Part shown: positions 15,662 to 61,645 of the stretch, one piece after another
Layout: every line of letters begins with the position of its first letter
Numbering within the stretch: the stretch's first letter is position 1
DNA from: an uncultured Trueperaceae bacterium
GTDB lineage: Bacteria > Deinococcota > Deinococci > Deinococcales > Trueperaceae
Reading direction: 5' to 3'
Assembly (NCBI GenBank): GCA_963727505.1
Contig: CAVSGP010000004.1
Coordinates: 288,001-352,000 of the forward strand
Length of the DNA stretch: 64,000 nt
Position numbers and translations under genes: made by a program
Notes under the pieces: generated by a model
Told to the model about the DNA's origin: nothing
Database searches by the model: none
Seen by the model: the letters and a program-made list of their open reading frames with translations, nothing else

Positions 15662-18302
<2,641 letters not shown>

Positions 18303-19160: not shown

Positions 19161-19393
19161 GGGTGCTCCCACGCGAGTCTAGCACCCGGCGCGTGTCCCC
19201 TCGGCGACCTCGATCGAAGGCGCCACGACGGCGATGCCGACGGCGTCTCCGGCACCGTTGCGGGACCCGTCGGCCCGTCCGCCGCGACGGCGAGCGCCGC
19301 GCCCGAGGCAGGGTGGGGAGGCCCGGGCGGGGAGGCCCGGGCTGGCGCTGCGGCGGACCGCCACCAACCCGGCGCCGAGGGTACCCTGGCCGG

Positions 19394-43162: not shown

Positions 43163-43659
<497 letters not shown>

Positions 43660-43660
<1 letters not shown>

Positions 43661-46122: not shown

Positions 46123-46131
46123 TGCTATAGT
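46123..46131 (+). promoter_or_regulatory. Extended -10 promoter of the spt-like operon
   Basis: TG-C-TATAGT upstream of the GGAGG RBS. Confidence 0.55.
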
Positions 46132-46166
46132 GCCCTAATTGGCTTGCAGCCGCGTTGGAGGAAGTC

Positions 46167-47423
46167 TTGTCAGAGGTCGTTGACGCCCGCCAGAATCCGG
46201 TGACTCAGGAAGGCTCCGAGCAGCGCTCGGGGCGAGCCCGGGACGCCTTCGCGAAGGCCTTCGCGTTCAGTCGCGCCGAACAGGCCGAGTCGGCGGGCCT
46301 GCACCCCTACTTCAAACCCATCGCCGCCCAGCACGGCGGAACCGTCCGCGCGAACGGACGGGAGATGGTCATCACCGGTTCGAACGACTACCTGGGCCTG
46401 ACCCAGGACGAGCGCCTCAAGAACGCGGCCCGCGACGCGCTGGACGACTTCGGCACGAGCTGCACCGGCTCGCGCTTCCTGACCGGCACGCTGACGCTCC
46501 ACGAGACGCTCGAGCAGCGTCTCGCGAGCTTCCTCAACAAGGAGGCGGCTCTCACGTTCAGCGCCGGTTATCTCGGTTGCCTCTCGGTTGTGAGCGCCCT
46601 CGCCGGTCGGCACGACATCCTGTACTACGACCGCGAGAACCACGCCTCGCTCTACGACGCTGCTCGTCTGTCGTTCGCGACCTTGCGCAAGTACGATCAC
46701 AATGACCTCGATCACCTCGAGCGCCTTCTGGCTGCGGACGCCGACAAGCCGGGTGGGCGCATCATCGTGTCCGACGGCGTCTTCTCCATGAGCGGCCACA
46801 TCGTGGACCTGCCGGGCCTGGTCGAGGTCAAGCGCCGCTACGGCGCGCGCCTGATGATCGACGACGCCCACGCCAGCGGCGTTCTGGGCGACGGCGGCCG
46901 TGGCACCGGCGAGCACTTCGGCCTCGAGGACGAGGTCGACGTCATCATCGGCACCTTCTCGAAGTCGTTCGCGAGCGTCGGCGGGTTCATGGCCGGTGAT
47001 CACAAGGTGGTGCAGTTCGTCAAGCATCACGCGCGCCCCTTCATCTTCACCGCCGCCCTGCCCGCCATGCAGATGGCGGCCGCGCTTGCCGCGCTCGACA
47101 TCATGGAGACCGAACCCGAGCATCGCCGGCGCCTGTGGAGCAACGTCCAGCGCTTCCGCACCGGGATGCAAGAGCTCGGCTTCGATACGCTCGGCTCCGA
47201 GACCCCGATCGTGCCTGTGCTGGTAGGCGAGGATGACCGAGCGCTGGCCTTCTGGAAGGGCCTGTGGGACGCGGGTGTGTTCACGACCCCGGCGCTGCCG
47301 CCCGGTGTTCCCCCCGGGCACTCGATCATCCGGACCAGCGTCAACGCGAACCACACGGACGACGAGCTCGACCGCCTTCTCACCGCGTTCGAAACGGTGG
47401 GCAAGGGGCTTGGTGTAATCTGA
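46167..47423 (+). CDS. spt: Alpha-oxoamine synthase, serine palmitoyltransferase-like
   Basis: PYFKPI, GSNDYLGLT, GTSCTGSRFLTGT, NHAS, DGVFSM, DDAH, PLP-lysine motif GTFSKS, RPFIFTAALP; TTG start after GGAGG. Confidence 0.8.
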   Translation: MSEVVDARQNPVTQEGSEQRSGRARDAFAKAFAFSRAEQAESAGLHPYFKPIAAQHGGTVRANGREMVITGSNDYLGLTQDERLKNAARDALDDFGTSCTGSRFLTGTLTLHETLEQRLASFLNKEAALTFSAGYLGCLSVVSALAGRHDILYYDRENHASLYDAARLSFATLRKYDHNDLDHLERLLAADADKPGGRIIVSDGVFSMSGHIVDLPGLVEVKRRYGARLMIDDAHASGVLGDGGRGTGEHFGLEDEVDVIIGTFSKSFASVGGFMAGDHKVVQFVKHHARPFIFTAALPAMQMAAALAALDIMETEPEHRRRLWSNVQRFRTGMQELGFDTLGSETPIVPVLVGEDDRALAFWKGLWDAGVFTTPALPPGVPPGHSIIRTSVNANHTDDELDRLLTAFETVGKGLGVI

Positions 47424-47447
47424 CAACCGAATAAGGGGTGATCAGCC

Positions 47448-48557
47448 ATGGTCGAGATCAAGAAGGTCGCGACGAAGCGCGACCTCGGTCGTTTCATTGA
47501 TTACGTCTACGACAAATACCGGGGTGATCCGACCTTCGTGCCCCCGCTGCGCATGGGGGAGTTCGACAAGCTGAACCCGAAGAAGAACCCCTTCTTCGAG
47601 CACGGCCGGATCACCCCCTACCTCGCCGAACGCGACGGACGCATCGTCGGCCGCATCGCCTGCATCGACAACGACGCCCACAACGAGCAGTTCGGAGACA
47701 ACCTGGTGTTCTTCGGGTTTTTCGAGGCCGAGGACGCCGAGATCGCCGCGGCGCTGTACGAAGCCGTCGAGAAGGAGGCGCGGGCGCTGGGCAGGGACAC
47801 CGTTCGCGGTCCCGCCAACCCCACCATGGACGACGGCGCCGGCTTCCAGATCGATGCCTTCGAGACCAGGCCGTTCATCATGATGCCGCAGAATCCGCCG
47901 GACTATCTGGGCTTCGCCGAGGCTTCCGGTTACAGCAAGATCAAGGACCTCTACGCTTGGAAGATCGACATCCGCCACGGCGCCACCGAACGCCTGGAGC
48001 GCATGGCCGATCGCGTACGCAAGCGCTACGACGTCACGGTGCGACCCGCCGACATGAAGCAGTTCAAGCGCGAGGTCGGCCTGCTCAAGCACCTCTACAC
48101 CGTCGCCTGGGAGGAGAACTGGGGGCAGGTGCGCGGCACCGACGCGGAGTTCGACTATCTTGCCAACGACCTCAAGATGATCATGGAGCCGGAGCTGGCG
48201 CTCTTCCTCGAGTACAAGGGGGAGACGGTGGGGCTCTCGATCACCATCCCGGACCTCAACCAGGTGCTGGCGAAGTTCAACGGCCGGCTCTTCCCCTTCG
48301 GGATCTTCCACCTGCTCAACCGCAAGAAGATCATCGACCAGGGACGGCTCGCCATCCTCGGGGTGTTGCCGGAGTATCGCCGGAAGGGTTTCGAGCTGCT
48401 CATGATCGCCGAGACCGCGCGGCGCGGTCGCGCCATCGGCTACACCGGCGGCGAGTGCAGCTGGGTGCTCGAGGACAATGACGCCATGAACCGTGGGATC
48501 GAGGCGGCGGGCAGCGAGCTCTACAAGACCTACCGTATGTACCAGAAGGCGCTGTGA
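47448..48557 (+). CDS. Double-GNAT N-acyltransferase resembling bacterial ceramide synthase (bCerS)
   Basis: FVPPL..KKNPFFEH, VGRIA, FGFFE, RGPANP, MMPQNPPDY, AWEENWG, IPDLN, GRLFPFG, LGVLPEYRRKG, SWVLEDN. Confidence 0.75.
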   Translation: MVEIKKVATKRDLGRFIDYVYDKYRGDPTFVPPLRMGEFDKLNPKKNPFFEHGRITPYLAERDGRIVGRIACIDNDAHNEQFGDNLVFFGFFEAEDAEIAAALYEAVEKEARALGRDTVRGPANPTMDDGAGFQIDAFETRPFIMMPQNPPDYLGFAEASGYSKIKDLYAWKIDIRHGATERLERMADRVRKRYDVTVRPADMKQFKREVGLLKHLYTVAWEENWGQVRGTDAEFDYLANDLKMIMEPELALFLEYKGETVGLSITIPDLNQVLAKFNGRLFPFGIFHLLNRKKIIDQGRLAILGVLPEYRRKGFELLMIAETARRGRAIGYTGGECSWVLEDNDAMNRGIEAAGSELYKTYRMYQKAL

Positions 48558-49288
48558 GCCCGCTGCGTTCGGTCGGCGTGGTGTTCGCCGACCTGGCGCA
48601 GCTGTTCGACCGGAAGCACGCCCGGCTGTGGTTCCTGCTCACTGCGGCGGTGCTTCTGCAGGTGGGATTCTGGTACATCGCCAGCCCCGGCCCCGCGCTC
48701 ATGCAGTTCCAGCCGCGCACGCTGACGACAGGCATCACCACGGTGGCGTGGTCCCTGGTGTTCCTGCTGGCCCTGCCCGCACTGTTGCTGGCGGTCGTGG
48801 GCGTCGATCTCAGGCACGTCGGGCTTCGCCTCGGCGACGCCCGGTTCGGCCTCTCCGTGGCGCTGGGCGGCGCCGTGATCGTCGTGCCGCTGATGTACCT
48901 GGCCAGTTTCGACAAGGGGCTCCAGGCGACCTACCCCTGGGCGGGCGCCTGGGTCGGGCGCAGCCTCGGCACCATCTTGCTTTGGGCCCTCATCTACGGC
49001 CTGTACTACGTCGCGTTCGAGTTCTTCTACCGAGGCTTCCTGCAGCGCATCGTCGCCGACGCCTGGGGCGCCCCGCAGGGCATCTGGGTGCAGACGTTGG
49101 CGGCCACCCTCATCCACCTAGGGAAGCCCATGACCGAGCTGCTGGCCGCGCTGCCCGCCAGCCTGCTCTTCGGAGCGCTGGCGCTGCGCAGCCGGTCGGT
49201 GCTCTACTCCACCATCATCCATCTGGTCATCGGCCTGTCCACCGATCTGTTCGTGCTCTACCACCAGGGCCTGCTGTTCCACCGCTGA
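48554..49288 (+). CDS. CPBP (CAAX protease-like) intramembrane protein
   Basis: Multiple TM helices, EFFYRG, IHLGKP..E, C-terminal His; GTGA overlap. Confidence 0.85.
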   Translation: MSPLRSVGVVFADLAQLFDRKHARLWFLLTAAVLLQVGFWYIASPGPALMQFQPRTLTTGITTVAWSLVFLLALPALLLAVVGVDLRHVGLRLGDARFGLSVALGGAVIVVPLMYLASFDKGLQATYPWAGAWVGRSLGTILLWALIYGLYYVAFEFFYRGFLQRIVADAWGAPQGIWVQTLAATLIHLGKPMTELLAALPASLLFGALALRSRSVLYSTIIHLVIGLSTDLFVLYHQGLLFHR

Positions 49289-49363
49289 CGCCATGGCCCG
49301 CCGCGACGCCCGAAATGACCGAGCGAGACCCCTTCCTGGTAGGCTTGGATGGCGACGGCTGTC

Positions 49364-50350
49364 ATGAAAGTCCTGGTTACCGGTGCCCATGGCTTCCTCG
49401 GGAGCCACATCAGCGAACACCTGCTGGCCGCAGGCCACCAGGTGCGGGCCCTCGTCTCCCCCTGGGGGACCATCGGGAACCTGTCCGCGGTGCTCGATCG
49501 GCAGAGCTTGGAGATCCGGCGCGCCGACCTCAGCCGCGAGGGCGCCCTGGGCGGCGCCTGCGACGGCGTCGATGCCGTGGTGCACGCCGCCGCCCGCGTC
49601 GCCGACTGGGGACCTTGGGACGCCTTCTACCGCACCAACGTGATGGGCACGCAACAGCTCCTGCAGGAGGCCACCCGTGCGGGCGCAGCTCGTTTCGTGC
49701 TCATCTCCAGCGTCGCCGTCCACCGCTACAGCGGCTTCCGCAACGCCGACCCGCGTGAGGTCCCCCGCGACAACCTGCGCGAGGCCTACGCGCACTCCAA
49801 GATCATGGCCGAGGACCTGGTCCGGCAGGCCGAGGGGATCGAGGGCGTGATCGTGCGCCCCGGGCTGTGGCCCTTCGGCCCGCGGGATCCCAACTTCCGC
49901 CGCGTGGCACGCGCGCTCGAGCAGGGCGTTCTCCCCATGGTGGGGAGCGGCGACAGCGTCATCAACACGGCCTACGCCGAGAACCTCGCCCTCGGGATAC
50001 GCCTGGCGTTGGAGCGCGCGGAGGCGGCCCACCGCTCGTACGTGATCGCCGACGACGGCATGCCGAGCTGGCGGGAGCTGCTCGCCGAGCTGGCGCGCCT
50101 CCTGGGCGAGCGTCCGCCCCGGTTGCGCCTGCCCGGGACCCCCACCAAGGCGCTCGCCCGCGGCGTGGAAGCGACCTGGGGAGCCCTCTTCCCGCGCAAC
50201 GAGCCCCCCATGACACGCTACCGTGCTGGATTGATGACCCGCGACGTGCACTTCAGCATCCGGCACGCCGTGGAGGAGCTGGGCTACCACCCGGTGGTGT
50301 CCTGGCGCGAGGGGCTGCGCCGCTCGGTAGGTGCCCTCGCCCCCGTCTAG
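49364..50350 (+). CDS. Extended SDR, NAD-dependent epimerase/dehydrogenase (candidate 3-oxo-lipid reductase)
   Basis: TGAHGFLG, VHAAA, NVMGT, ISS, YAHSK, GPRD. Confidence 0.85.
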   Translation: MKVLVTGAHGFLGSHISEHLLAAGHQVRALVSPWGTIGNLSAVLDRQSLEIRRADLSREGALGGACDGVDAVVHAAARVADWGPWDAFYRTNVMGTQQLLQEATRAGAARFVLISSVAVHRYSGFRNADPREVPRDNLREAYAHSKIMAEDLVRQAEGIEGVIVRPGLWPFGPRDPNFRRVARALEQGVLPMVGSGDSVINTAYAENLALGIRLALERAEAAHRSYVIADDGMPSWRELLAELARLLGERPPRLRLPGTPTKALARGVEATWGALFPRNEPPMTRYRAGLMTRDVHFSIRHAVEELGYHPVVSWREGLRRSVGALAPV

Positions 50351-50416
50351 GGCCGGTTCGACGTGCCGCCGCCCCTCCAACCGGGAGCTCTGGCGGCGGT
50401 GGTATGGTGGCGCGAC

Positions 50417-51517
50417 ATGAGCGAGGGATTCGACTTCCTCATCGTGGGCGCAGGCTTCTCGGGAGCTGTCCTCGCCGAACGGATCGCCAGCCAGCGCGGC
50501 GGTAGCGTGCTGGTCGTGGACCGCCGCGATCACATCGGGGGCAACGCCTACGACGAGTACGACGACAACGGCGTGCTGGTCCACCGCTACGGGCCGCACA
50601 TCTTCCACACCAACGCCAAGAGCGTGTTCGATTACCTGTCACAGTTCACGGGCTGGCGTCCCTACCAGCACCGCGTGAGGGCCCTGGTCGATGGCCGCCT
50701 GGTGCCGATCCCGATCAATCTCGATACCATCAACACCCTGTACAACCTCGACCTGTCGAGTTCCGAGCTGGAGGCGTTCTTCTCGGCGCGCGCCGAGAAG
50801 CGCGAGCGCATCGAGACGTCCGAAGACGTGGTGGTGGCGCGCGTCGGGCGGGAGCTGTTCGAGAAGTTCTTCCGCGGCTACACCAAGAAGCAGTGGGGGC
50901 TCGAGCCCAAGGAGCTCGACGCCACCGTGACCGCGCGCGTGCCGGTGCGCACCAACCGCGACGACCGCTACTTCACCGACGTCTACCAGGCGATGCCCCT
51001 CCACGGCTACACGGCGATGTTCCGCCGCATGCTGCGCCATCCCAACATCAAGGTGATGCTCAACACCGACTACCGCGAGGTGGCCGATCTGGTACCCCAC
51101 AAGCACCTGATCTACACCGGTCCCATCGACGGCTACTTCGAGCACAGCCTGGGCCCGCTACCCTACCGTTCGCTGGAGTTCGAGTTCGTCACCCACGACG
51201 AGGAGCAGGTGCAGGAGACCGGCACCACCAACTACCCGAACGACTACGCCTACACCCGGCGCACCGAGATGAAGCACCTGACCGGCCAGCGGCACGCCAA
51301 GTCGGTGCTCGTGTACGAGCACCCACGCGCCGAGGGCGATCCCTACTACCCGGTGCCCAGGCCCGAGAACCGGGCGCTCTACGAGGAGTACAGCACCATG
51401 GCCGCCGAGCTCGCGCACGTCACGTTCGCCGGCCGTCTCGGTACCTACCGGTACTACAACATGGATCAGGTCGTGGCACAGGCGCTCAAGACCTTCGAGA
51501 CGCTGCCGGACGTGTGA
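50417..51517 (+). CDS. glf: UDP-galactopyranose mutase
   Basis: GAGFSG, HIGGNAYD, YGPHIFHTN, YTKKQWG, PYYP, GRLGTYRYYNMDQ. Confidence 0.96.
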   Translation: MSEGFDFLIVGAGFSGAVLAERIASQRGGSVLVVDRRDHIGGNAYDEYDDNGVLVHRYGPHIFHTNAKSVFDYLSQFTGWRPYQHRVRALVDGRLVPIPINLDTINTLYNLDLSSSELEAFFSARAEKRERIETSEDVVVARVGRELFEKFFRGYTKKQWGLEPKELDATVTARVPVRTNRDDRYFTDVYQAMPLHGYTAMFRRMLRHPNIKVMLNTDYREVADLVPHKHLIYTGPIDGYFEHSLGPLPYRSLEFEFVTHDEEQVQETGTTNYPNDYAYTRRTEMKHLTGQRHAKSVLVYEHPRAEGDPYYPVPRPENRALYEEYSTMAAELAHVTFAGRLGTYRYYNMDQVVAQALKTFETLPDV

Positions 51518-51542
51518 CGTCCGGGACACCGGGGTCAAGCTC

Positions 51543-52721
51543 ATGACGTCACCGAGCGGCACGCGCCCGCGCATCCTCATCGCCATGATCGAGGCCGGGG
51601 GCGGACACCGGGCGCCCGCCCTGGCGTTGCAGGCCGCCCTGGAGCGGGTCCGGCCCGGACGCTTCGACGTCGACGTCTTCGACATCATGCGCCACGTCGG
51701 CGAGGTGGCGCTGGACCGTCGCCACAAGCAGAGCTGGAAGTGGATGCTCGCCCACCCGCGGGTCACCTTCGTGCTGCAGAACGCCATCGATCGCGTCGTA
51801 CCCGTGGCCTGGACCCAGGCCGTGCAGGCTCGGACGCTAGCCGGCTTCCGCCGACGTCTCTCCTCCTTCGTGCGCGAGCAGGGCTACGATCTGGTCGTGG
51901 CCGTGCACTTCATGCCGCTGCAGGCGGCCGCGATGGCCCGCCGTCGGGGCGAGCTGGGCGCCCGGGTGGTGGGCGTCGATACCGACCCCTTCGACGGCCA
52001 CGCCCTCTGGGCGGTCCGGGACGCCGACGAGATCGTGGTGGCGAGCGAGCAGGCGAGGGCGCTGCTGAGCGCCAAGGGCGTGCCCGCTGAGCGGGTGAAG
52101 GTCTTCGGCTACCCGCTCAACCTCGCCTTCGTGGAAACCGTTCCCGACGCCGAAACCGCGCGCCGTCAGCTCGGCCTCGACGCCGCCCGCCTCACCGTGC
52201 TCCACACTCCGGGAGGCGAAGGCATCGGCGGTGATGTCGAAGGCATCGTCAAGGCGGTGCTGGCAGCCGATCTCGACCTGCAGTATGTGGTCATCGCCGG
52301 GCGCAACGAGCAACTCCGCGCGCGGCTGCAGGACCTGGCGGACGCCCACGCCGCTCGGGGAGGCCGGACCCGCCTCAAGGTCGAGGGGTTCACCACCAAC
52401 ATGCCGGAGTGGATCGCGGCCAGCGATCTGGTGCTCGGCAAGGCCGGGGCGGCATCGACCTTCGAGGCGCTGGCGCTGGGCAGGCCCATCTTCCACACCA
52501 GCTACGTGGCGCCCAACGAGAAGCGCAACCTCGAGTACTGCCGGCAGCACGAGATCGGCGGCTACGTGCCCAGGCCCCGAGACGTCGTCGGGCTGCTGGC
52601 GCCCCTCTGCCAGGATCCGGCGCCCCTGCACACCTGGCAAGAGCGCGTCCGAGCTCTGGGCCTCCAGCCGGGAACACTCGACATCGCTGAGCATCTGGCG
52701 GCGCTGGCGGAGGCCCCTTGA
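51543..52721 (+). CDS. MGDG synthase-like glycosyltransferase (GT28/UgtP-like)
   Basis: AGGGHRAPA, VHF, TD, GGEGIG, IAGRNE, GFTTNMPEW, GKAG, NEKRN. Confidence 0.85.
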   Translation: MTSPSGTRPRILIAMIEAGGGHRAPALALQAALERVRPGRFDVDVFDIMRHVGEVALDRRHKQSWKWMLAHPRVTFVLQNAIDRVVPVAWTQAVQARTLAGFRRRLSSFVREQGYDLVVAVHFMPLQAAAMARRRGELGARVVGVDTDPFDGHALWAVRDADEIVVASEQARALLSAKGVPAERVKVFGYPLNLAFVETVPDAETARRQLGLDAARLTVLHTPGGEGIGGDVEGIVKAVLAADLDLQYVVIAGRNEQLRARLQDLADAHAARGGRTRLKVEGFTTNMPEWIAASDLVLGKAGAASTFEALALGRPIFHTSYVAPNEKRNLEYCRQHEIGGYVPRPRDVVGLLAPLCQDPAPLHTWQERVRALGLQPGTLDIAEHLAALAEAP

Positions 52722-53713
52722 ACAGGATGGTCCTGCGCTCGCTGATCGTCTCCATGGTGCTCAGCGCGTTGGGGCTCGCCTGGGTCGTGTTCCGGGTAGG
52801 CACGCTCCAGGACCTCGCCAGCATCCGCCAACTACGATGGACCTACGGTGTCTGCGCCGTGCTCGGCCTGCTCGGCGCCTTCGTGATGGCGGCGTTCCGG
52901 TTGCGCTTCATGTGCCGCCGCCTGGGCCACACGGTGAAGCTCCGCCATGCCCTGAGAGCGCACATCTTAGGCATGTTCAGCGCCACCGTCACGCCGGGCG
53001 GAAGCGGCGCCACTCCAGCCCTGGCCCTGTCGCTGCAGAGCCAGGGTCTGCCGCCGGGGGTGGCGTGGGCGGTAGGCGTGTCCGTGTTCGGGGCCGACGC
53101 GCTGTTCCACGCCTGGGGGCTCCCCATCGCGCTCGGTCTGCTCTACGCCCTGCATCTCTACCCGCACGCGCCCGGTTGGCTGGCGCTCGGCGCGCTGACG
53201 GTGGCGCTGTCGGCGGGGGTGGCCTACCTGGTGCAGTTCCGGCTCGAGTGGTTGGAGCCGATCGCGCGCTGGGCTCTCCGCGGGCCGCTGGTCCGCTTCC
53301 GCCGTCGCGGATTGCGCTTCGTCGAAACCATGCTCGAGTCCAACCGACTGTTCAAGCGCGCACCGGCGCGCTTCCACCTGATTCTGCAGGCCCTCACGAC
53401 TCTCTCATGGATCTCGTTCTTCTCGGTCCTGTTCTTCGTGGCGCGCGGCCTCGGGCTGCTGGTCTCCCTCGCCTCCATCGAAGCCGCACAGATGGTGGTG
53501 ACGGTGATGTCCACCTTCGTGCCCACACCGGGCGGGAGCGGCTTCCTGGAGCTCGGCATCTCCTACGTGCTGGTCTCGTCCGGAGGCAGTGCGTCGGCAT
53601 CGGTCCCTGCGGCGGTGCTGCTGTGGCGGCTCGTGACCTACTACTCGATCTTCCTACTCGGCCCCCTACTGGGCGGGTACCTGCTGACGCAGCGGATGGC
53701 CCCCGATGCCTGA
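52718..53713 (+). CDS. Lysylphosphatidylglycerol synthase TM-domain (flippase-like, YbhN/AglD2-type) membrane protein
   Basis: Many TM helices, VTPGGSG, PTPGGSGFLE, WRLVTYY. Confidence 0.85.
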   Translation: MNRMVLRSLIVSMVLSALGLAWVVFRVGTLQDLASIRQLRWTYGVCAVLGLLGAFVMAAFRLRFMCRRLGHTVKLRHALRAHILGMFSATVTPGGSGATPALALSLQSQGLPPGVAWAVGVSVFGADALFHAWGLPIALGLLYALHLYPHAPGWLALGALTVALSAGVAYLVQFRLEWLEPIARWALRGPLVRFRRRGLRFVETMLESNRLFKRAPARFHLILQALTTLSWISFFSVLFFVARGLGLLVSLASIEAAQMVVTVMSTFVPTPGGSGFLELGISYVLVSSGGSASASVPAAVLLWRLVTYYSIFLLGPLLGGYLLTQRMAPDA

Positions 53714-53765
53714 GAAGCCGCCCGGCCGCACCCACGACCGGGTGCCCGGTGGTACGCTTCGCCGG

Positions 53766-55025
53766 ATGAGCGACTCGGAGACGGCGCTCCGCTTTGCACT
53801 CGCCACGCCGGACTACCCCCCCGATCCCATGGGAACCGGCATCGGAACCTACGCCAAGAGCCTCGCCGAAGGCCTGACGAGGCGTGGGCACCGGGTCCAC
53901 GTTGTAACGCGGGGGCCGGAGGGGGACGCCACGGTCGACGACGGCGGCGTGACGGTTCACCGTATCGGCGTGCAACGGCCGGACTTCCCGACCCACATCG
54001 CCCCGCTCGCCTTCGTAGGCCTCGCCGCGCGGAGCATCGCGAACGAGTTCCGCTACCGCTCGCGCGTCGCGGCCACGCTCGACATGCTGGTGCGGCGCGA
54101 AGGCGTGCAACTCGTGGAGGCCGCGGACTCCTTCGTAGAGGCGCTCTTCTACCGAGCCGCCCGCCACCCGAAGGTGCCCTTCGTGATCCGGCTCCACACC
54201 CCGATGTCGGTGGCAGAACGCTTCGATCGGAACTTGCCCGAGCCGGCCCGCCGCTTGCTTCAGAGTATCGAGCGCGTCCATCTGCGTAGGGCGACACATC
54301 TGAGCGTGCCGAGCGCCACTCCCCGCCGCACCTTCCGGGAGGCCATGCGCCTCGGCGGTCGTCCCATCGAGGCCATCCCCAACCCGCCGCCGGGAATGCC
54401 CGCTGTCACGGCTGCACGAACCAGCATCACGAACGCCGTAACGGACCCGGCCGCACCCGAGGTCCTTTACGTCGGGAGGATCACCGCCGTCAAGGGCGTA
54501 TTCGTGCTCGCCGATGCCATACCCAAAGTGCTCGAGAAGGTGCCAGGAGCGCACTTCCGCTTCGTGGGCGCAGACAGCCCTGCCTCCTCCGGATCGGGCA
54601 CCACGGTGGAGGCCCTCAGGGACCGCCTACCGCAGGCGGCCGCAGCGAAGGTCACCTTCGAGGGGCGCGTTCCGCTACAGCGCATCGGCGCCTACTTGCA
54701 GGGCGCGAGCGTTTGCGTCTTCCCCTCGTTGTTCGAGAACTTCCCCTATACCTGCCTAGAGGCGATGGCTGCCGGCAAAGCCGTCGTCGGCAGCGCGGCG
54801 GGCGGCATGCAGGACATGCTGGACGGCGGGGAGTGCGGCCTTCTTTACCATCCTCCGAACGTCGGCGAGCTCGCCGACGCCATCGTCCGGCTTCTCACCG
54901 ATCACGAGCTTCGCAGCCGCCTGGGCGCCGCTGCCCGTCGCCGCGCCGGCGATGCGTACGGCGAGGACCGGGTCTTCGACGCGACCGTCGGCTTCTACCG
55001 GCGCGCCATCGAGAGCCTCGCCTGA
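53766..55025 (+). CDS. Glycosyltransferase family 4
   Basis: DYPP..GIGTY, YVGRITAVKG, FPSLFENFPYTCLEAMAAG; ATG 7 nt after TACGCT. Confidence 0.92.
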   Translation: MSDSETALRFALATPDYPPDPMGTGIGTYAKSLAEGLTRRGHRVHVVTRGPEGDATVDDGGVTVHRIGVQRPDFPTHIAPLAFVGLAARSIANEFRYRSRVAATLDMLVRREGVQLVEAADSFVEALFYRAARHPKVPFVIRLHTPMSVAERFDRNLPEPARRLLQSIERVHLRRATHLSVPSATPRRTFREAMRLGGRPIEAIPNPPPGMPAVTAARTSITNAVTDPAAPEVLYVGRITAVKGVFVLADAIPKVLEKVPGAHFRFVGADSPASSGSGTTVEALRDRLPQAAAAKVTFEGRVPLQRIGAYLQGASVCVFPSLFENFPYTCLEAMAAGKAVVGSAAGGMQDMLDGGECGLLYHPPNVGELADAIVRLLTDHELRSRLGAAARRRAGDAYGEDRVFDATVGFYRRAIESLA

Positions 55026-55083
55026 TGTCGCACCGGCCGAACGTTCACGATTTCGTTCTGGAGCGCCCTGTACACTGGGGGTC

Positions 55084-57651
55084 GTGACGGCGCTGCGTCG
55101 TTTGGCCCTCCTGAACCTGCTCCGGCACCCCTGGCGCAGCCTGGCCACGGTCCTGGGTGTGGGGATCGGCATCGCGGCGGTGCTGACCACCCTGTCGGTC
55201 GGCGCCAACGTCGAGGCCAACGTGCGCGGCGCGCTGCAGGCGGCCGCGGGCAAGGCCGACCTGCTGGTCACGCCGGGCGCCGGCGGACGCGCCGTCTTCG
55301 AGGACGGCCCCGCCCTCGACCTGCTGCGCACCGTCACCGGCGTGAAGGCGGTCTATCCGGTCCTCAACACCCGCGCGGAACCCGTGCGCGCCATCCAGGA
55401 CTTCCAGAAGTCGATCATCCCCGGCGTCGATACCGGGTTCCAGCTCAGCGGTCGCGTCACGACCGAGCCCGCTGACCTGCCGGCCGAGCTCGCGCAGGGC
55501 GCCCTCCCCCAACCCGGGTCGAACGGCGTGGCCATCGCTCAGGGATTCGCTCGCGAACGCGGGATCGCGATGGGCGACACCGTTCGCTTCGCCACCAGCT
55601 TCGGCGACATCCCGCTCACGGTGACGGGCCTCCTCGACGACCGCTACGGGCTGGCCAGCACCAACGGCGGGCGGGTCGGCATCATCGCCATCCAGGACCT
55701 CCGGACCATCCTCCACATGCAGGGGCGCGCCTCCCACATCGAGGTCCTGGTGGATCCATCGGTGCCGGTGGAGGACGTGCGCACGCGCATCGAGGCCCGT
55801 CTCCCGTCGCTGTCGCAGGATCTGACCGTCACCTACCCGGCGGTATCCGGCAACGTGGCATCGGGCATCGTCGACACGCTGCAGTCAGGGCTGTCCGTGC
55901 TTGCGGTGACCCTGCTCGCGCTGGGCGGGTTCATGGCTTACAACACCTTCATGGCCTCGGTGGTGGAGCGCACGCGGGAGTACGCGCTGCTGCGCACCAT
56001 CTGTATGACGCGGGGGGACGTGCAACGCCTGGCGCTGTACGAGGCGGGCGCCCTGAGCCTCGTCGGGGTGCTGGCGGGGCTTGTCCTCGGCGTCGGACTG
56101 GCCTACGTCATCACGCGCATGAACGCGGTCAACCTGGGTTTCGATTTCCGGACGCTGGTCATCCCGGTTCGCAGCGTGGCCCTGGCATCCGGGGTCGGCA
56201 TGATCGTCTCGCTGGCCGCAGGCGTCCTGCCGGCGCGCAGCGCCTCACGCACACCCCCCATCGCGGCCAGCCGCGTTGCGGACGAAGCCCCGTCGCCGCG
56301 CCTGGCGGCGCTGGGCTGGGGCCTGCTGGCATTGGGCGTGGTGTTGGGCGTCCTGCCGTGGTCGGGGTATCTCGCGCTCGCCGCCAGCGGCACCGCGATG
56401 GCGGTGTTCTTCGTCGGGGTGGCCCTGGCCACGCCGAGCCTGCTCCGCCCCTCCCTCCGGCTGCTCACGCCCCTGCTCGCGCGCCTCTTCGGCGCCTCGG
56501 GACGCCTGGGCAGCAACTTCGCCCTGCGCAACGCCGCCCGCAACGGCGTGGCCATCGGCACCGTGGCCGTCGGCACCGGGCTGATCATCGGCGTCGGGTC
56601 GATGGTCGCCGGCATCAACCGGGCCATCGGCTCCTGGGTCGACACCACCATCGTGGGTGACCTGTTCGTGACCTCTCCGGTCAGCTTCCCGGACGACTTC
56701 GAGCAGAAGGCGCAGCAGGTCCCGGGCGTGAACGTGGCCAGCGGCGTCGGCATCCGGGTCGTCCGGTTCGAGCCGAAGGGAGGCGGGCGCGGCCGCTCGA
56801 TCGCGATGATCCTGGTCGACCCGCAGCGCTTCGACCCCAGCGGCGGCTTCGGCCACTTCCAGTACATCCAGGGCCAGGGCGACAACCGCGAGGGCTACCG
56901 CGCTCTGTCGAAGGGCAGTGAGGTCCTGGTGGCCAACACCATGCGCGACAAGTATGGCGTCCAGAAGGGCGACACCATCCGCTTGCGAACCGTCGACGGC
57001 TTCAAGGACTTCCCCGTCGCCGGCGTGGTGGTCGACTTCACCGGCGGTGGCGAGACGGTGGTGGGAAGCATCCACGACCTGCCCCTGTTCGGGGGCGGCT
57101 CGCCCGACCTCTTCGTCATCGCCGACAAGCCCGGTGCCGACCCGCAGCAGGTGCGCCAGGCGTTGCTGACCCGTTTCCCGGGGCTGCACCTCGACGTCAC
57201 CCTCAACGCCGACTACCGGCGCTACGTCTTGAGCCTGACGCAACGATCGTTCCAGACCACCAACATGCTGCTGCTCATCGCGGTGCTGGTCGCGGCGCTG
57301 GGCGTGGCCAACACGCTGGGTATGAACCTGGTGAGCCGCAGTCACGAAATCGCCGTCCTGCGCACGGTCGGCATGACGCGCGGCGGAGTCAGGCGTCTCA
57401 TCGCCTCAGAGGGTATGGTGGTGACTTTGGTGGGCGCCGTACTCGGCGTGGCCTTCGGGTTGCTCCTCTCCCGCGTGATCAGTGCGGGCGCGAGCGCCCT
57501 GACCGGCTTCCTGCTGACGCCTGCGATCAACTGGGCCCTGGTGGGCCTGGCGCTGGCGGCGTCCCCCCTGGTGGGCCTGCTCGCGTCGCTGCTCCCCGCG
57601 CGGCGTGCGGCGCAACTCTCCCCCACCCGGGCGCTGGGATTCGTGGAGTGA
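55084..57651 (+). CDS. ABC transporter permease, duplicated MacB/FtsX-type
   Basis: Two repeats of a TM-periplasmic-3TM unit; NTFMASVVERTREYALLR, NTLGMNLVSRSHEIAVLRTVG, PARRAA; GTG 7 nt after TACACT. Confidence 0.9.
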   Translation: MTALRRLALLNLLRHPWRSLATVLGVGIGIAAVLTTLSVGANVEANVRGALQAAAGKADLLVTPGAGGRAVFEDGPALDLLRTVTGVKAVYPVLNTRAEPVRAIQDFQKSIIPGVDTGFQLSGRVTTEPADLPAELAQGALPQPGSNGVAIAQGFARERGIAMGDTVRFATSFGDIPLTVTGLLDDRYGLASTNGGRVGIIAIQDLRTILHMQGRASHIEVLVDPSVPVEDVRTRIEARLPSLSQDLTVTYPAVSGNVASGIVDTLQSGLSVLAVTLLALGGFMAYNTFMASVVERTREYALLRTICMTRGDVQRLALYEAGALSLVGVLAGLVLGVGLAYVITRMNAVNLGFDFRTLVIPVRSVALASGVGMIVSLAAGVLPARSASRTPPIAASRVADEAPSPRLAALGWGLLALGVVLGVLPWSGYLALAASGTAMAVFFVGVALATPSLLRPSLRLLTPLLARLFGASGRLGSNFALRNAARNGVAIGTVAVGTGLIIGVGSMVAGINRAIGSWVDTTIVGDLFVTSPVSFPDDFEQKAQQVPGVNVASGVGIRVVRFEPKGGGRGRSIAMILVDPQRFDPSGGFGHFQYIQGQGDNREGYRALSKGSEVLVANTMRDKYGVQKGDTIRLRTVDGFKDFPVAGVVVDFTGGGETVVGSIHDLPLFGGGSPDLFVIADKPGADPQQVRQALLTRFPGLHLDVTLNADYRRYVLSLTQRSFQTTNMLLLIAVLVAALGVANTLGMNLVSRSHEIAVLRTVGMTRGGVRRLIASEGMVVTLVGAVLGVAFGLLLSRVISAGASALTGFLLTPAINWALVGLALAASPLVGLLASLLPARRAAQLSPTRALGFVE

Positions 57652-57653
57652 CC

Positions 57654-58394
57654 ATGGCGACGAGCGACGTTCCTGTCCTACGTGCGACCGCGTTGACCAA
57701 ACGCTACCGCCTCGGCGACCTCACCATCGAGGCGCTGAAGGAGGTCGATCTCACCGTGAAGGCGGGCGAGTTCCTGGCCGTGATGGGCCCCAGCGGCAGC
57801 GGCAAGAGCACGCTCCTGCATCTGCTGGGGCTGCTCGACCTGCCGGACGGCGGCGGCGTCGAGGTGGCCGGGCAGGTCACCGCCGACCTGGACGACGACG
57901 CCCTGACGGGGCTGCGGCGCACCAAGCTGGGGTTCTTGTTCCAGAGCTTCGAGCTGATCCCCAACCTCACGGCCCGTGAGAACATTCTGTTGCCGGCGGA
58001 GATCGCCGGACGCGCTGCCCAGGCGGCCGACCGTCTCCGCGAGCTCTCCGAGCAACTCGCCATCGTCGATCGGCTCAACCACCGTCCCCGTCAGCTTTCC
58101 GGCGGCCAGCGACAGCGTGTGGCACTGGCCCGCGCGCTCATCAACGACCCCGTGGTGGTGCTTGCCGACGAACCCACCGGCAATCTCGACACCCACACCG
58201 GTTCCGAGGTCCTCGACCTGCTCCGGCACGGGGTCGATACCCTTGGTTGGACCGTGGTGATGGTCACCCACGACCCCAACGCCGCCATGCACGCCGACCG
58301 CATCGTATTCCTGCGTGACGGCCGGGTCTCGGGCGAAACCGGCACCGCCCAGAGCAACGCCCGCGACATCATCGAACATTTCGTGGGGGTGTGA
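57654..58394 (+). CDS. ABC transporter ATP-binding protein (LolD/MacB-like)
   Basis: GPSGSGKST, LSGGQRQR, ADEPTGNLD, VTHD. Confidence 0.94.
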   Translation: MATSDVPVLRATALTKRYRLGDLTIEALKEVDLTVKAGEFLAVMGPSGSGKSTLLHLLGLLDLPDGGGVEVAGQVTADLDDDALTGLRRTKLGFLFQSFELIPNLTARENILLPAEIAGRAAQAADRLRELSEQLAIVDRLNHRPRQLSGGQRQRVALARALINDPVVVLADEPTGNLDTHTGSEVLDLLRHGVDTLGWTVVMVTHDPNAAMHADRIVFLRDGRVSGETGTAQSNARDIIEHFVGV

Positions 58395-58422
58395 GCGGGC
58401 CGGCGCGGCCCCCGCAAACCGC

Positions 58423-60663
58423 ATGTTGAGACGCATCGCAAGGATCACGGCCCGCTACCCACGATGGGTCCTGGCCGCGTGGCTGTTGCTGGCGGGGATC
58501 TCGCTCCCCTTCGCAGCGCGGGTCGGCGACGTCCTTACGGCCCAGCCTGGAATGGCGCCGCACAGTGTCGCCAAGCAGGTGCGTGCCGTGCTGCGCCAGC
58601 AGTTCGCGCTGCCCGACGACTACAACGTCGTGCTGGTGGTACACGGCGTCGGCGACAAGGTGGGGCAACCCGCCTTCGACGACTCCTTCGCCCGGGTGGT
58701 CGACAACATCAAGGCGGTCCCCGGCGTCACAGCGGTCCGCGACCATCGCAGTGTCACCGGACTGAACCTGGTCGCGCCCGACAACAGCTACACGGTCGCC
58801 CTGGTCAGCATGGCGGCGCCCGACCTCGGCAAGGCCAAGATCATCACCAACCGGATCCGCCAGGTCTTGAAGGGCGCGCCCGGTCTACGCTTCACCATGG
58901 CCGGCGGGCCGGCCACCGTACAGGAGCTCGAGCACGTGAGCGAACGCGACGCTCGGCGCGCCGAAGTGTTCGGCCTGCCCATCTCGTTGCTCATCCTCAT
59001 CATCGCCTTCGGCGCCGTCATCGCCTCGGCGCTGCCGCTTCTGGTGGCGCTGGCCTCGATCACTGTTTCGCTCGCCGCCCTCTACGCCATGGGCCAGGTG
59101 GTCGAGTTCGCCGTGTTCACCCAGACGATCGTCACCATGCTGGGGCTGGCGACGGGCATCGACTACGCGCTGTTGATGGTGAACCGCTTCCGCGAGGAGC
59201 TCCGCCACACCTTCGACCCTCGAGAGGCGGCCGAACGCACCGCGCAGACGGCGGGTAAAGCCGTGGCCTTCAGTGGGCTGACGGTGGTGATGGCGTTGAG
59301 CGGCCTGCTGGTGCCCCCGCTGGCGTTCATCCGCTCGATCGGCGTCGGCACCATCATCGTGCTCCTGATCAGCGTCTCGGTGTCGGTCACGGCGCTGCCC
59401 GCCGCGCTGGCGTTGCTCGGACACCGGGTGAACTGGCTCAAGGTCACGCGCCGCGAGCCCGGGCTGCGCAGCCGCAGCTTCTGGCGCGCCCGCGCCAACG
59501 AGATCATGAGGCGCCCCGTGCTCTGGGCGGTCATCGGTGGGGTCGTCCTGGTCGCTGCCGGGTTGCCTGCGCTCGGCATGCAGGTGGCCGACCCGGGTCC
59601 CCGCGGGCTCTCGAAGACCACCGACGCCAACCGCACCGTCACCGCACTGGAGAACCTGGGCCTGGAGGGCCTGCTGAACTCTTTCGACGTGCTGGTGGAT
59701 TTCGGCCCCAAGGGCTTCTACCGCCCGGACAACGTCCGCAAGATCTCACAGCTCGACCGTAGCCTGACGGAGCTGGACCGGGTGGAGGCCATCACCAGCC
59801 CGATGGCTGTCAGCAGCGTTCCGCGGCTGTTCCTCTACCAGTACTACGCTTCGCCCGACATCGCCTTGAAGAGCGAGATCGCCCCCCTCGCCCGGGCTAC
59901 GATCAGCACGGCCGGGCGCTACGCGCTGGTCCGGGTCTTCCCCAAGGGAACGCTCACCCCCGCGCAGGGCGGTACCCTGCTGTCTACGATCGAGCATCGG
60001 GCGCAGGCGCTCGGCCTCGACGTGAAGGTAGGCGGGGGCTACGTGCAGGAGGCCGAGTGGGCGGCGGTGCTCTATCGCAGCTTCCCGTGGGCGGTGCTGC
60101 TGGTGTACCTCGCCACCATCGTGGTCCTGGGCCTGGCCTTCCGGTCGCTGCTGATCCCCATCAAGGCCATCATCCTCAACACGCTCACCGTCGCTGCGGC
60201 CTACGGCGTCATCACCCTGGTGTTCCAGCAGGGCGTGCTGACGACGCTCTTCGGAGGCGGGCCGGTGCTCGGGTACATCGACACCAGCGCGCCGCTGTTC
60301 ATCTTCGCGATCGTGTTCGGGCTCAGCATGGACTACGAGGTCTTCCTGGTGGCGCGCATCCTCGAGCAGCACGAGCGCGGCGCAAGCGACCGGGAGGCCG
60401 TCGCCACCGCGCTGTCGGCCACGGGCGGCGTGATCACCAGCGCTGCGGCCGTCATGATCACGGTCTTCGCGCTGTTCCTGTTCAGCCACGTGGTGCTCGT
60501 ACGTACCCTCGGCCTGGGGCTTTCCGTCGCGGTCTTGCTCGACGGCACCCTGGTGCGCATGGCGCTGGTCCCGGCGGTGATGACCCTGGCGGGCCGCTGG
60601 AACTGGTGGATGCCGGCTGCACTGACGCGCCTCACGAAGCGAAGCAAACTCAGCCCCGACTAG
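58423..60663 (+). CDS. MMPL family (RND) transporter
   Basis: LGLATGIDYAL..RFREE, TAGKAVAFSG, FGLSMDYEVF, VITSAA, LVPA. Confidence 0.93.
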   Translation: MLRRIARITARYPRWVLAAWLLLAGISLPFAARVGDVLTAQPGMAPHSVAKQVRAVLRQQFALPDDYNVVLVVHGVGDKVGQPAFDDSFARVVDNIKAVPGVTAVRDHRSVTGLNLVAPDNSYTVALVSMAAPDLGKAKIITNRIRQVLKGAPGLRFTMAGGPATVQELEHVSERDARRAEVFGLPISLLILIIAFGAVIASALPLLVALASITVSLAALYAMGQVVEFAVFTQTIVTMLGLATGIDYALLMVNRFREELRHTFDPREAAERTAQTAGKAVAFSGLTVVMALSGLLVPPLAFIRSIGVGTIIVLLISVSVSVTALPAALALLGHRVNWLKVTRREPGLRSRSFWRARANEIMRRPVLWAVIGGVVLVAAGLPALGMQVADPGPRGLSKTTDANRTVTALENLGLEGLLNSFDVLVDFGPKGFYRPDNVRKISQLDRSLTELDRVEAITSPMAVSSVPRLFLYQYYASPDIALKSEIAPLARATISTAGRYALVRVFPKGTLTPAQGGTLLSTIEHRAQALGLDVKVGGGYVQEAEWAAVLYRSFPWAVLLVYLATIVVLGLAFRSLLIPIKAIILNTLTVAAAYGVITLVFQQGVLTTLFGGGPVLGYIDTSAPLFIFAIVFGLSMDYEVFLVARILEQHERGASDREAVATALSATGGVITSAAAVMITVFALFLFSHVVLVRTLGLGLSVAVLLDGTLVRMALVPAVMTLAGRWNWWMPAALTRLTKRSKLSPD

Positions 60664-60714: not shown

Positions 60715-61614
60715 TCAGCGCAGCGTGCCGGTCAGGAGCGCCGTCGCATCGACCTGGTGGCTGGCGAGCCCGGGGGCCTGCAGGCTGAGCGGACCCGACA
60801 CCCGGAAGTCGAGGCTGCCGGCGCCCGACGCCACGGCCGAGACCTGGGCCGCCAGCGCGGGTCCGACCTGCAACGGGTTGAATCGGAACCGCAGGTCGAT
60901 GGGAACGGTCGCGCCCGCGGGCGCGATGATCCGACCGAGTTGCAAGGTGGCGACGTTGGCTCCGCCGAGCACGAGCCTCACGGTCGGTGCCTGGACGACG
61001 TAACCCAGCGGCGACGGGTTGTGTAGCGTCGCCTGGATGTCGAGGGTCGCGCTCGTCAGCGAGTCGACGTGCAGCGTGGGGCCCGAGGAAGCCAGACGGA
61101 TCTCGGGCGCGACCCACTTCGGCGACCACCGAACGCTCCCCTGGGCCAGGGTGGCGCGCGGGAAGCGCTGCACGGCACCGAACACGCGCACGCCCACCGT
61201 GGCGTCCACGCGGTAGGAGGTCGCGGCGCCGGTGAGCAGGCCGGCGACGGTCTGGAGGAGGGCGGGCGCCTGGGCGAGCGGCACCCGGACCTCCATCGTG
61301 AGATCGCTGCTGCCCCGCGCAGGAAGCTCGATGCCGTGACGGAAGGTGGTCGTGGCGGCCCGGCGGTCGCCAAGGTAGAAGTCGCCGTCGAGGGTGGCCA
61401 GACTCAGGCCGATGCTGTTGGGGTTGTGCGCCCGCAGGTGGATGTCGAAGACGGCGGCGCCCTCCCCGACCCCGGGCGGATCGACGTACTGGAAGCCGGT
61501 CCCACTCTCCAGCACCGTGAACGTCGGCGCAGCGATGGCCGGCTCCGCGCCCGGCGCACACGCTGTCAACAGCAGGGGGATCGCCACTAGGAACAGAAGC
61601 CATGAGCGACGCAC
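60715..61614 (-). CDS. Lipoprotein with two LEA_2 (WHy) domains
   Basis: Lipobox LLTAC; HNPNSIGL and HNPSPLG motifs; GIELPARGS; GTG start after GGAGG. Confidence 0.8.
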   Translation of the reverse strand: MRRSWLLFLVAIPLLLTACAPGAEPAIAAPTFTVLESGTGFQYVDPPGVGEGAAVFDIHLRAHNPNSIGLSLATLDGDFYLGDRRAATTTFRHGIELPARGSSDLTMEVRVPLAQAPALLQTVAGLLTGAATSYRVDATVGVRVFGAVQRFPRATLAQGSVRWSPKWVAPEIRLASSGPTLHVDSLTSATLDIQATLHNPSPLGYVVQAPTVRLVLGGANVATLQLGRIIAPAGATVPIDLRFRFNPLQVGPALAAQVSAVASGAGSLDFRVSGPLSLQAPGLASHQVDATALLTGTLR

Positions 61615-61645
61615 ACGACACCTCCGCGGCGCTCGGAAGCGCCTG

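Follow-up and report, generated by a model that had tools for sequence, protein, structure and literature searches.

In Caulobacter crescentus, the genes of the ceramide pathway are Spt (CC_1162), bCerS/CerS (CC_1154), CerR (CC_1164), AcpR and AasR. Galactofuranosyltransferases known so far belong mostly to GT2, and in Firmicutes the glycosyltransferase UgtP/YpfP is paired with LtaA. Trueperaceae and Rubrobacteria have a reputation for withstanding radiation and desiccation. We know of no characterised sphingolipid pathway in Deinococcota and of no lipid analyses that identify sphingolipids in any Trueperaceae. Dihydroceramide in Caulobacter is reported to require CC_1154 (PMC9386255, PMC11324152), and the homologues named for this gene include yghO ECD_02850 in E. 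coli BL21 and DRN02_007910 in S. paucimobilis (PMC9386255). The core Spt-bCerS pathway has previously been predicted for many phyla (PMC11334938). The genome paper of Truepera radiovictrix reports the polar lipids as an uncompared mixture of glycolipids and phospholipids (PMC3072082).

Here we describe a block of genes at 46155-60663 of the window, the 64,000-nucleotide stretch of DNA from an uncultured Trueperaceae bacterium that was analysed. Probably this block serves, as one operon, to make a glycosylated dihydroceramide and to export it. Ceramide would most likely be made by the known bacterial route, combined with an unusual reductase and a glycosylation and export module.

Organization of the locus

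Open reading frames and matches to Pfam and NCBIfam models place eight genes, all on the + strand, where the sequence-only reading had described eight co-oriented, packed genes. The intergenic gaps calculated from the coordinates are 24, -4, 60, 12, 25, -4 and -8 nt. The block proved longer than that reading had given. It extends in the same orientation, to 60663, through a duplicated MacB/LolCE-type ABC permease (54952..57651, + strand; PF02687 and PF12704, two stretches each), a MacB/LolD-like ABC ATPase (57648..58394, + strand; PF00005, 111.7 bits; LolD and MacB models at 210-229 bits, under cut-off) and an MMPL-family RND lipid transporter (58315..60663, + strand; PF03176, 249 bits). Unrelated minus-strand genes lie on both flanks. 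In contrast to Proteobacteria, no ACP or acyl-ACP synthetase gene was found inside the block.

A tandem-GNAT acyltransferase in a conserved gene arrangement

The second gene (47448..48557, + strand) encodes an N-acyltransferase whose sequence-level domain signal is only a weak PF00583 match. The best Foldseek matches of its AlphaFold2 model (pLDDT 83.2) are the tandem-GNAT structures 2wpw, 5kf1, 7q3a and MshD (E 1e-13 to 1e-10), and the label of double GNAT given to it earlier is therefore right. The protein is 31% identical to the acyltransferase (aca) of the Sphingomonas cluster over residues 2-369 (E 2e-61) and 31% identical to E. coli YghO across 100% of its length; both of these proteins sit in sphingolipid clusters. 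When the Sphingomonas acyltransferase was searched against the window's own genome, the GNAT was the single match. A sequence search for a related solved bCerS structure found none. The comparison with bCerS that had been suggested thus yields a full-length, genome-unique relative of the family, through direct comparison for the Sphingomonas and E. coli proteins and through the published homologies for Caulobacter. By fold and homology we predict that this protein is a bCerS-family N-acyltransferase acting as ceramide synthase.

We used the GNAT to fetch 80 loci from Trueperaceae, Rubrobacteria, Acidobacteriota, Ignavibacteria-type Bacteroidota and Bdellovibrionota. An alpha-oxoamine synthase (AOS) lies within 8 kb of the GNAT at 66 of the 80 loci and immediately upstream on the same strand at 47, an SDR follows within 2 kb downstream at 49, and both AOS and SDR are present at 46. 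This gene arrangement is not chance. A synteny check across Trueperaceae had been called for, and the AOS-GNAT linkage is kept both across that family and in further phyla. In Rubrobacter radiotolerans RSPS-4 the AOS-GNAT-SDR cluster is on plasmid 1. Within Deinococcota, 87 of 102 Trueperaceae genomes and all ten genomes from one other family carry the GNAT, and the largest two families gave weak matches only. The window's lineage keeps lpxA, lpxC and lpxD, which the control genomes of Thermus thermophilus and Deinococcus radiodurans do not.

A predicted variant reductase and its putative membrane partner

The fourth gene (49349..50350, + strand; PF01370, 102 bits) encodes an extended SDR that is a predicted 3-keto reductase in place of CerR. 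The sequence-only reading had set the locus against the Spt-bCerS-CerR scheme, which stands here in so far as the SDR has an intact NAD motif (TGxxGxxG, with G12, G15 and G18) and S-Y-K triad (S120/S121, Y147 and K151), all invariant among 16 sequences, and fails in that the SDR belongs to another type than CerR. We rejected it as an orthologue of CerR (CC_1164-type). It is 30% identical to the Sphingomonas CerR-type protein (E 9e-15) and, in a search of its own genome with that protein, ranks third at 36.9 bits, after 43.7 and 39.5. It is also distinct from the SDR of other loci: by our count, about 45 of the 80 loci have an SDR that matches the Sphingomonas or E. coli protein at 73-139 bits, compared with 44-81 bits for the window type. 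Judged by sequence, a clear CerR homologue is missing from the window's genome. As a protein outside the CerR type, the SDR is assigned to the reduction step from context and chemistry only. Its NCBIfam matches are OleD (160 bits) and HpnA (141 bits), both under cut-off, and the better of the two, OleD, is a reductase acting on long-chain 3-oxo lipids.

Between the GNAT and SDR genes lies a gene for a CPBP/Rce1-like membrane protein (48554..49288, + strand; PF02517, 38.3 bits against a cut-off of 22.4), in which residues E156, R160, H188 and H223 are invariant among 16 relatives. A CPBP gene is present at 19 of the 80 GNAT loci, and the SDR is of the window type at all 17 loci where CPBP and SDR are both whole, as counted from our tables. 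We predict that, in this sub-lineage, the CPBP protein together with the OleD/HpnA-like SDR takes over the role of the canonical CerR.

Predicted glycosylation and export genes

Four further lipid genes follow. The first encodes Glf, UDP-galactopyranose mutase (50363..51517, + strand; TIGR00031, 388 bits against a cut-off of 303.75), which is found beside ceramide genes at just 4 of the 80 loci. The second, a GT28 or MGDG-synthase-like gene (51543..52721, + strand), encodes a predicted ceramide glycosyltransferase that exceeds the Pfam thresholds of PF06925 (36.5 against 25) and PF04101 (29.8 against 22). Its best solved relative is Arabidopsis MGD1 (95.9 bits), with a processive DAG glucosyltransferase at 66.8 bits; by these matches it belongs to a family of membrane-lipid glycosyltransferases. 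Next come a flippase-like membrane protein of the LPG_synthase_TM family (52718..53713, + strand; PF03706, 114 bits; TIGR00374, 88.8 bits against a cut-off of 43.2), on which a GlcN-PG flippase model scores 66.5 bits, under its cut-off, and a GT4 glycosyltransferase (53706..55025, + strand; PF00534, 109.5 bits; PF13579, 74.6 bits) that is predicted to add a second sugar and whose relatives of solved structure are generic GT4 only. No GT2 galactofuranosyltransferase is present in the block, which counts against our reading, as does the rarity of Glf beside ceramide genes. Among the 80 loci, a MacB/LolCE-type permease lies 3' of the lipid genes at seven and an MMPL transporter is found at four.

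In loci of Trueperaceae and Rubrobacteraceae alike, GT28 precedes the flippase-like gene, and the order AOS-GNAT-SDR-GT28-flippase is kept in both families. Of the 95 Trueperaceae genomes in both of our tables, 75 have GNAT and GT28, 7 GNAT only, 2 GT28 only and 11 neither, although genomes so closely akin are no independent observations. Gene order and co-occurrence lead us to infer that the ceramide would be glycosylated and that galactofuranose may be used.

It is possible, if unlikely, that the ceramide core is correctly read but that the product of the four genes from Glf to GT4 is a glycolipid built on diacylglycerol or a diol, and that an envelope-lipid island is all that brings the two sets of genes together. 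Diacylglycerol is indeed the acceptor for the two characterised enzymes closest to GT28 (MGD1 and the processive DAG glucosyltransferase), one of GNAT and GT28 occurs without the other in 9 of the 95 genomes, and GT28 identity across Trueperaceae beyond the window's genus is just 33-50%. Galactofuranose also occurs in Thermus glycolipids, which we count in favour of such a product. Against this reading stand the position of GT28 and the flippase-like gene behind AOS-GNAT-SDR, an order common to two phyla, and the overlaps of 4 and 8 nt between genes inside one co-oriented block. Moreover, GT28 is missing as well in 11 of the 13 listed Trueperaceae genomes that lack the GNAT, some of which are 95-100% complete.

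The Spt-like alpha-oxoamine synthase

The ceramide reading begins with the first gene (46155..47423, + strand; PF00155, 200.7 bits), an Spt-like AOS that is predicted to convert serine and acyl-CoA to 3-ketodihydrosphingosine. Its closest NCBIfam model is SPT-CFB (NF047600), and it misses every SPT equivalog cut-off (NF047600, 432 against 640 bits; NF047599, 385 against 500; NF047603, 299 against 670). The NF047600 cut-off is narrow, since only 4 of the 151 genomes in a Bacteroidota sample pass it. Among solved structures the top relative is the Sphingobacterium SPT (3a2b/8guh), at 361 bits, with Thermus BioF/Kbl at 290 bits. The GTFSKS motif, earlier read as typical of SPT, forms the lysine motif at residues 266-271. 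TFSK occurs at the lysine in all 13 SPT-side alignment rows (TFSKS in 11) and in none of the five BioF/Kbl rows, and the TFSKS context of the window AOS is common to all six SPT references.

The tree that had been proposed was built from 53 rows with SPT, BioF and Kbl references. Six sequences served as SPT references: four that pass NF047600, the Sphingomonas SPT, which matches 2jg2 at 907 bits, and the E. coli beta-type SPT, which reaches 600 bits where the cut-off is 500. These six and every GNAT-linked AOS, the window's included, are split from the BioF/Kbl references with support of 100/96, and a quick tree gave the same split with support of 96. The window AOS falls in its own clade with those of Rubrobacteria, Acidobacteriota and Bdellovibrionota; Bacteroidota AOS below the cut-off fall on the SPT side as well. 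We conclude that the AOS is most likely an SPT-type enzyme, predicted to condense serine.

Sequence does not settle which amino acid the AOS uses, because a solved cysteate acyltransferase matches the AOS at 270 bits and the tree was built without ALAS, CqsA and cysteate acyltransferase. The product of AOS, GNAT and SDR could instead be a long-chain amino lipid that is N-acylated but not built on serine, for example a capnine or sulfonolipid type (cysteate) or a 1-deoxy base (alanine or glycine). The missed SPT cut-offs, this fairly close solved relative and the presence on the same side of the tree of sub-cut-off Bacteroidota AOS with no assigned substrate would all fit such a product. Nevertheless we regard it as quite improbable: at 361 bits the characterised SPT is a clearly better match than the cysteate acyltransferase at 270, Pfam and NCBIfam models find no cysteate synthase gene in the block, a 1-deoxy base would be without the C1 hydroxyl that the linked glycosyltransferases would presumably need, and the partner GNAT is in the family required for Caulobacter ceramide. 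That the AOS is a housekeeping BioF or Kbl with unrelated neighbours is hardly credible, as the BioF and Kbl models do score 385 and 355 bits but stay under their cut-offs of 426 and 460, the genome encodes just one other AOS, which is a true Kbl (664 bits, above the cut-off of 493), BioB was not found in this 97% complete genome (best 28.6 bits against a cut-off of 225), and both the tree separation and the linkage at 66 loci speak against it.

A proposed glycosphingolipid pathway

The AOS tree, the GNAT homology and the synteny support ceramide synthesis, as the sequence-only reading had suggested. In the pathway that we propose from homology and context, the Spt-like PLP enzyme would condense L-serine with acyl-CoA to 3-ketodihydrosphingosine, which the tandem-GNAT would N-acylate. 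The SDR, in the role of the canonical CerR, would then reduce the 3-keto group, and the CPBP membrane protein, its constant companion, may cooperate with it. The GT28 enzyme would transfer a hexose onto the C1 hydroxyl and GT4 would attach a further sugar, with Glf producing UDP-galactofuranose as a possible donor for GT4. The flippase-like protein may carry the glycolipid across the inner membrane, and the MacB-type ABC system and the MMPL transporter may serve its outward transport.

A bolder scenario, which we offer as speculation and think fairly unlikely, is that Trueperaceae and Rubrobacteria have a common mobile glycosphingolipid cassette, in which the canonical reductase was replaced in the window's sub-lineage by a new two-part system of CPBP protein and OleD-like SDR. 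Its product would be a galactofuranose-bearing hexosyl-dihydroceramide with branched chains, a major envelope glycolipid for which MacB and MMPL would be the dedicated exporters, in a lineage of Deinococcota that keeps lpxA, lpxC and lpxD.

No study that we know of has resolved the Truepera envelope lipids, and for strains that can be cultured (Truepera radiovictrix, Rubrobacter radiotolerans and R. taiwanensis) the locus gives a testable prediction. The core chemistry, the known Spt-bCerS route, is not new, with earlier predictions covering dozens of phyla. What would be new is a reductase step carried out by a different SDR and a CPBP partner, in a new lineage, and the tie between a ceramide core and an MGDG-synthase-type glycosyltransferase, a flippase-like protein and dedicated exporters.

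Comparison with known systems

Caulobacter and the window have in common the clustering of an SPT-type AOS, an N-acyltransferase of the YghO/CC_1154 family and an SDR. Export genes are nearby in both, reported as second LptF/LptG copies in Caulobacter (PMC11324152) and present as MacB and MMPL in the window. The window block differs in being without AcpR and AasR genes, in having an SDR of another type accompanied by a CPBP protein, and in its head-group genes, GT28, flippase-like, Glf and GT4.

The Sphingobacterium multivorum SPT, which we take to be of a stand-alone, acyl-CoA-using type, aligns with residues 36-411 of the window AOS and has TFSKS as well. The window AOS differs from the Bacteroidota SPTs in falling below the NF047600 cut-off and in forming a separate clade. 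Like the lipid glycosyltransferases of known pairs with a flippase (plant MGD1; YpfP with LtaA), the GT28-type enzyme would act on a membrane-lipid alcohol, and the gene after it encodes a membrane protein that may flip the product. The window differs in that the predicted acceptor is ceramide and the flippase-like protein is of the LPG_synthase_TM family and not MFS.

Rubrobacter-type loci have AOS 66-72% and GNAT 52-57% identical to those of the window. The Rubrobacter and Acidobacteriota clusters share the window's gene order, often with GT28 and the flippase-like gene, but have a CerR-like SDR and no CPBP gene, and the R. radiotolerans plasmid has an LTA-synthase-family gene where the window has GT28.

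Results

All eight genes of the putative glycosylated-ceramide operon proposed by the sequence-only reading were recovered on the + strand at 46123..55025 by ORF, Pfam and NCBIfam searches: an Spt-like alpha-oxoamine synthase (AOS), a GNAT acyltransferase (the candidate ceramide synthase), a CPBP membrane protein, an SDR, Glf, a GT28 glycosyltransferase, a flippase-like protein and a GT4 glycosyltransferase. Successive intergenic gaps measure 24, -4, 60, 12, 25, -4 and -8 nt. The co-oriented block extends beyond 55025, where a duplicated MacB/LolCE-type permease (54952-57651, +), an ABC ATPase (57648-58394, +) and an MMPL transporter (58315-60663, +) come next. Unrelated genes on the opposite strand occupy both flanks, with a RimI-like GNAT, EF-P and a biotin carboxyl carrier protein upstream; immediately 3' of the block lies an LEA_2 (late embryogenesis abundant) domain protein (60715-61680, -), followed by an oligopeptide ABC system. 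A promoter and terminator scan was uninformative (2 terminator-like sites vs 5.6 expected), and the sequencing runs listed as containing the DNA, which belong to two studies, are metagenomes of soil and sediment, with no RNA run among them.

The AOS ranks closest to serine palmitoyltransferase (SPT). Bacteroidota SPT leads its NCBIfam matches at 432 bits, ahead of BioF and beta-proteobacterial SPT (385 each) and Kbl (355), with no curated NCBIfam cut-off reached. Among solved structures Sphingobacterium SPT is the top match (361 bits), with Thermus BioF/Kbl (290), Sphingomonas SPTs (266-275) and cysteate acyltransferase (270) lower. We built a 53-row tree, from which ALAS, CqsA and cysteate acyltransferase are absent. 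Its SPT references were four Bacteroidota proteins above the NF047600 cut-off, a Sphingomonas parapaucimobilis protein (907 bits to 2jg2, 833 bits on NF047603) and an E. coli cluster protein (600 bits on NF047599); its BioF/Kbl references were E. coli K-12 BioF and Kbl, each missing a few terminal residues, five Deinococcota proteins above the BioF cut-off, and the window genome's own Kbl. A branch with 100/96 support (96 in a quick tree) sets every SPT reference and every GNAT-linked AOS apart from the BioF/Kbl references; also on the BioF/Kbl side are a second AOS from Trueperaceae and a long-branched row from Acidobacteriota. The window AOS thus groups with SPT, apart from BioF/Kbl, as the sequence-only reading had supposed, and its argument from the lysine motif (GTFSKS for SPT, as against BioF/Kbl) holds within the aligned sample. 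A housekeeping role for the window AOS is unlikely, since the second of the genome's two AOS genes is a true Kbl (664 bits) and no BioB was found in this 97% complete genome. We infer that serine is the amino-acid substrate. The biotin carboxyl carrier protein (43163-43660, -) is encoded although the genome is without BioB, and the organism probably imports biotin.

The description of the second gene as a double GNAT is supported by its AlphaFold2 model (pLDDT 83.2), whose top Foldseek matches are solved tandem-GNAT proteins, but not by sequence alone, which gives a single weak PF00583 match. No NCBIfam family was assigned, and a sequence search of solved structures gave no match (best E 0.18). 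The protein's family is large and well conserved, with 5481 proteins at E <= 0.001 of 8000 candidates scored. Whole-length matches in a plasmid collection were E. coli YghO and an S. parapaucimobilis N-acetyltransferase (31% each), and both are located in textbook sphingolipid clusters. The Sphingomonas order is SDR, ACP, SPT, ATP-binding protein, LptF, LptG, desaturase, acyltransferase; that of E. coli is acyl-AMP ligase, SDR, ACP, SPT, LptG, LptF, with yghO adjoining. Searched in reverse against the window's genome, the Sphingomonas protein has a single match, the window GNAT. Our direct comparison used these Sphingomonas and E. coli proteins, and the link to Caulobacter runs through a published homologue list: in PMC9386255, yghO ECD_02850 and DRN02_007910 of S. 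paucimobilis are entered as homologues of CC_1154, the Caulobacter acyltransferase needed for dihydroceramide (also PMC11324152), and the locus-tag spacing in that paper is consistent with the Sphingomonas gene order observed here. The E. coli PN43 record NZ_MG591698.1 (L083, 9843-15440) carries the yghO cluster, in which the SPT passes the NF047599 cut-off and lptG and lptF are second copies; it is the sphingolipid cluster that PMC9386255 describes for B-type strains of E. coli.

Species-representative genomes, scanned with an alignment of the GNAT, yielded 395 confirmed relatives, of which we retained the best 80. These loci come from Trueperaceae, Rubrobacteria and other Actinomycetota, Acidobacteriota, Melioribacter-type Bacteroidota, Bdellovibrionota, Myxococcaceae, Nitrospirota and Cloacimonadales. 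The synteny is widely kept among these best 80 of 395: an AOS lies within 8 kb of the GNAT in 66 loci and directly upstream in 47, an SDR lies within 2 kb downstream in 49, and AOS and SDR occur together in 46; several of the 14 loci without an AOS are short contigs. A Myxococcaceae MAG (L052) encodes two GNAT paralogues 2 kb apart (10001-11119 and 13259-14374), which share 46% and 31% identity with the window GNAT; no AOS lies nearer than 10 kb. The cultured strain Rubrobacter radiotolerans RSPS-4 carries an AOS-GNAT-SDR trio on its 190.9-kb plasmid 1 (L110, record 14230-19822), with type I-D CRISPR genes before it and an LTA-synthase-family gene after it; the GNAT is annotated there as 'hypothetical protein'. 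In a set of Acidobacteriota loci (L037-L043, L046, L047, L050, L053, L054, L063, L064, L069, L072, L077) the AOS is encoded on the other strand, downstream of GNAT-SDR. Those sampled in the tree cluster with the SPTs of Sphingomonas and E. coli and lie outside the window's clade, so GNAT and AOS histories differ in this phylum. Trueperaceae and Rubrobacteria AOS form one clade in the quick tree (SH-aLRT 98), which points to transfer between their two phyla.

Across 301 Deinococcota genomes, in tallies that count one unpublished genome (G251), the window's family has the GNAT in 87 of its 102 members, and a second family in 10 of 10. Matches in the two largest remaining families are few and weak (2/112 and 2/62 genomes, E 1e-6 to 1e-3), and a further family has none (0/14). 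Some Trueperaceae genomes without the GNAT are 97-100% complete. One Trueperaceae copy (G201:C8:2887-3984, E 1.5e-131) contains 10 in-frame stops (6 TGA, 1 TAG, 3 TAA) and looks like a decayed ceramide-synthase gene. A role in Deinococcus alkylamine lipids or Thermus long-chain diols was set aside, given only weak GNAT matches in the two largest other families, whose identity we infer.

The unusual element of the locus is its predicted reductase, the SDR, whose NAD motif and Ser-Tyr-Lys triad are both intact. Of the NCBIfam models, OleD, which reduces long-chain 3-oxo lipids, scores best, followed by HpnA, the model that the CerR-type proteins of Sphingomonas and E. coli also match best. The window SDR is only 30% identical to the Sphingomonas CerR-type protein, for which it is the third-ranked match in its own genome. 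Counted by eye over the best 80 of 395 loci, neighbouring SDRs are of two kinds. A CerR-like SDR (73-139 bits to the proteobacterial proteins) occurs in about 45 of the 80, including all Rubrobacteria, Acidobacteriota and Ignavibacteria types and some Trueperaceae. The window kind occurs in 17 Trueperaceae loci, scoring 268-570 bits to the window SDR and 44-81 to CerR-type. A CPBP gene precedes every one of these 17, and none was found at the CerR-like loci among the 80. The CPBP protein retains E156, R160, H188 and H223 in relatives.

The GT28 is related to MGDG synthase and processive DAG glucosyltransferase. It follows the ceramide genes together with the flippase-like gene, an order common to Trueperaceae and Rubrobacteraceae. 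In our own tally from two tables, 75 of 95 Trueperaceae genomes (related, hence not independent) have both GNAT and GT28, 7 GNAT only, 2 GT28 only and 11 neither. This co-occurrence connects GT28 with the ceramide module instead of a diacylglycerol glycolipid common to the whole family; it is no proof of the acceptor, which we predict to be ceramide. Glf scores above its equivalog cut-off, yet stands beside the cluster in only 4 of the 80 loci; the corresponding counts are 7 for MacB and 4 for MMPL.

Since lpxA, lpxC and lpxD are all present in the genome, we dropped the idea of a glycosphingolipid taking the place of LPS. A cluster of LpxD-like, LpxC, Gfo/Idh/MocA oxidoreductase and LpxA-like genes lies on contig C9 of the window's genome (G000) at ~311.5-315.7 kb (L109:5587-9642, minus), so this Trueperaceae genome has early lipid-A genes. 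Its LpxC scores 201 bits on PF03331 and 163 on TIGR00325 (cut-off 187); the lpxC family had no match in either control genome, Thermus thermophilus or Deinococcus radiodurans.

Discussion

The Spt-bCerS-CerR route is established in Caulobacter. A Black Sea survey predicts it for about 40 phyla (PMC11334938); the survey's main text contains no 'Deinococc', its phyla being listed in a supplement. Our literature search, which did not extend to the supplementary tables, returned no paper tying Deinococcota, Truepera or Rubrobacter to the pathway. The polar lipids of T. radiovictrix appear in its genome paper as an uncompared mixture of glycolipids and phospholipids (PMC3072082). The predicted core chemistry is the same as that of the known bacterial ceramide route; what appears new is the lineage, a predicted reductase paired with a CPBP protein, and the predicted GT28-based head-group module with its own exporters.
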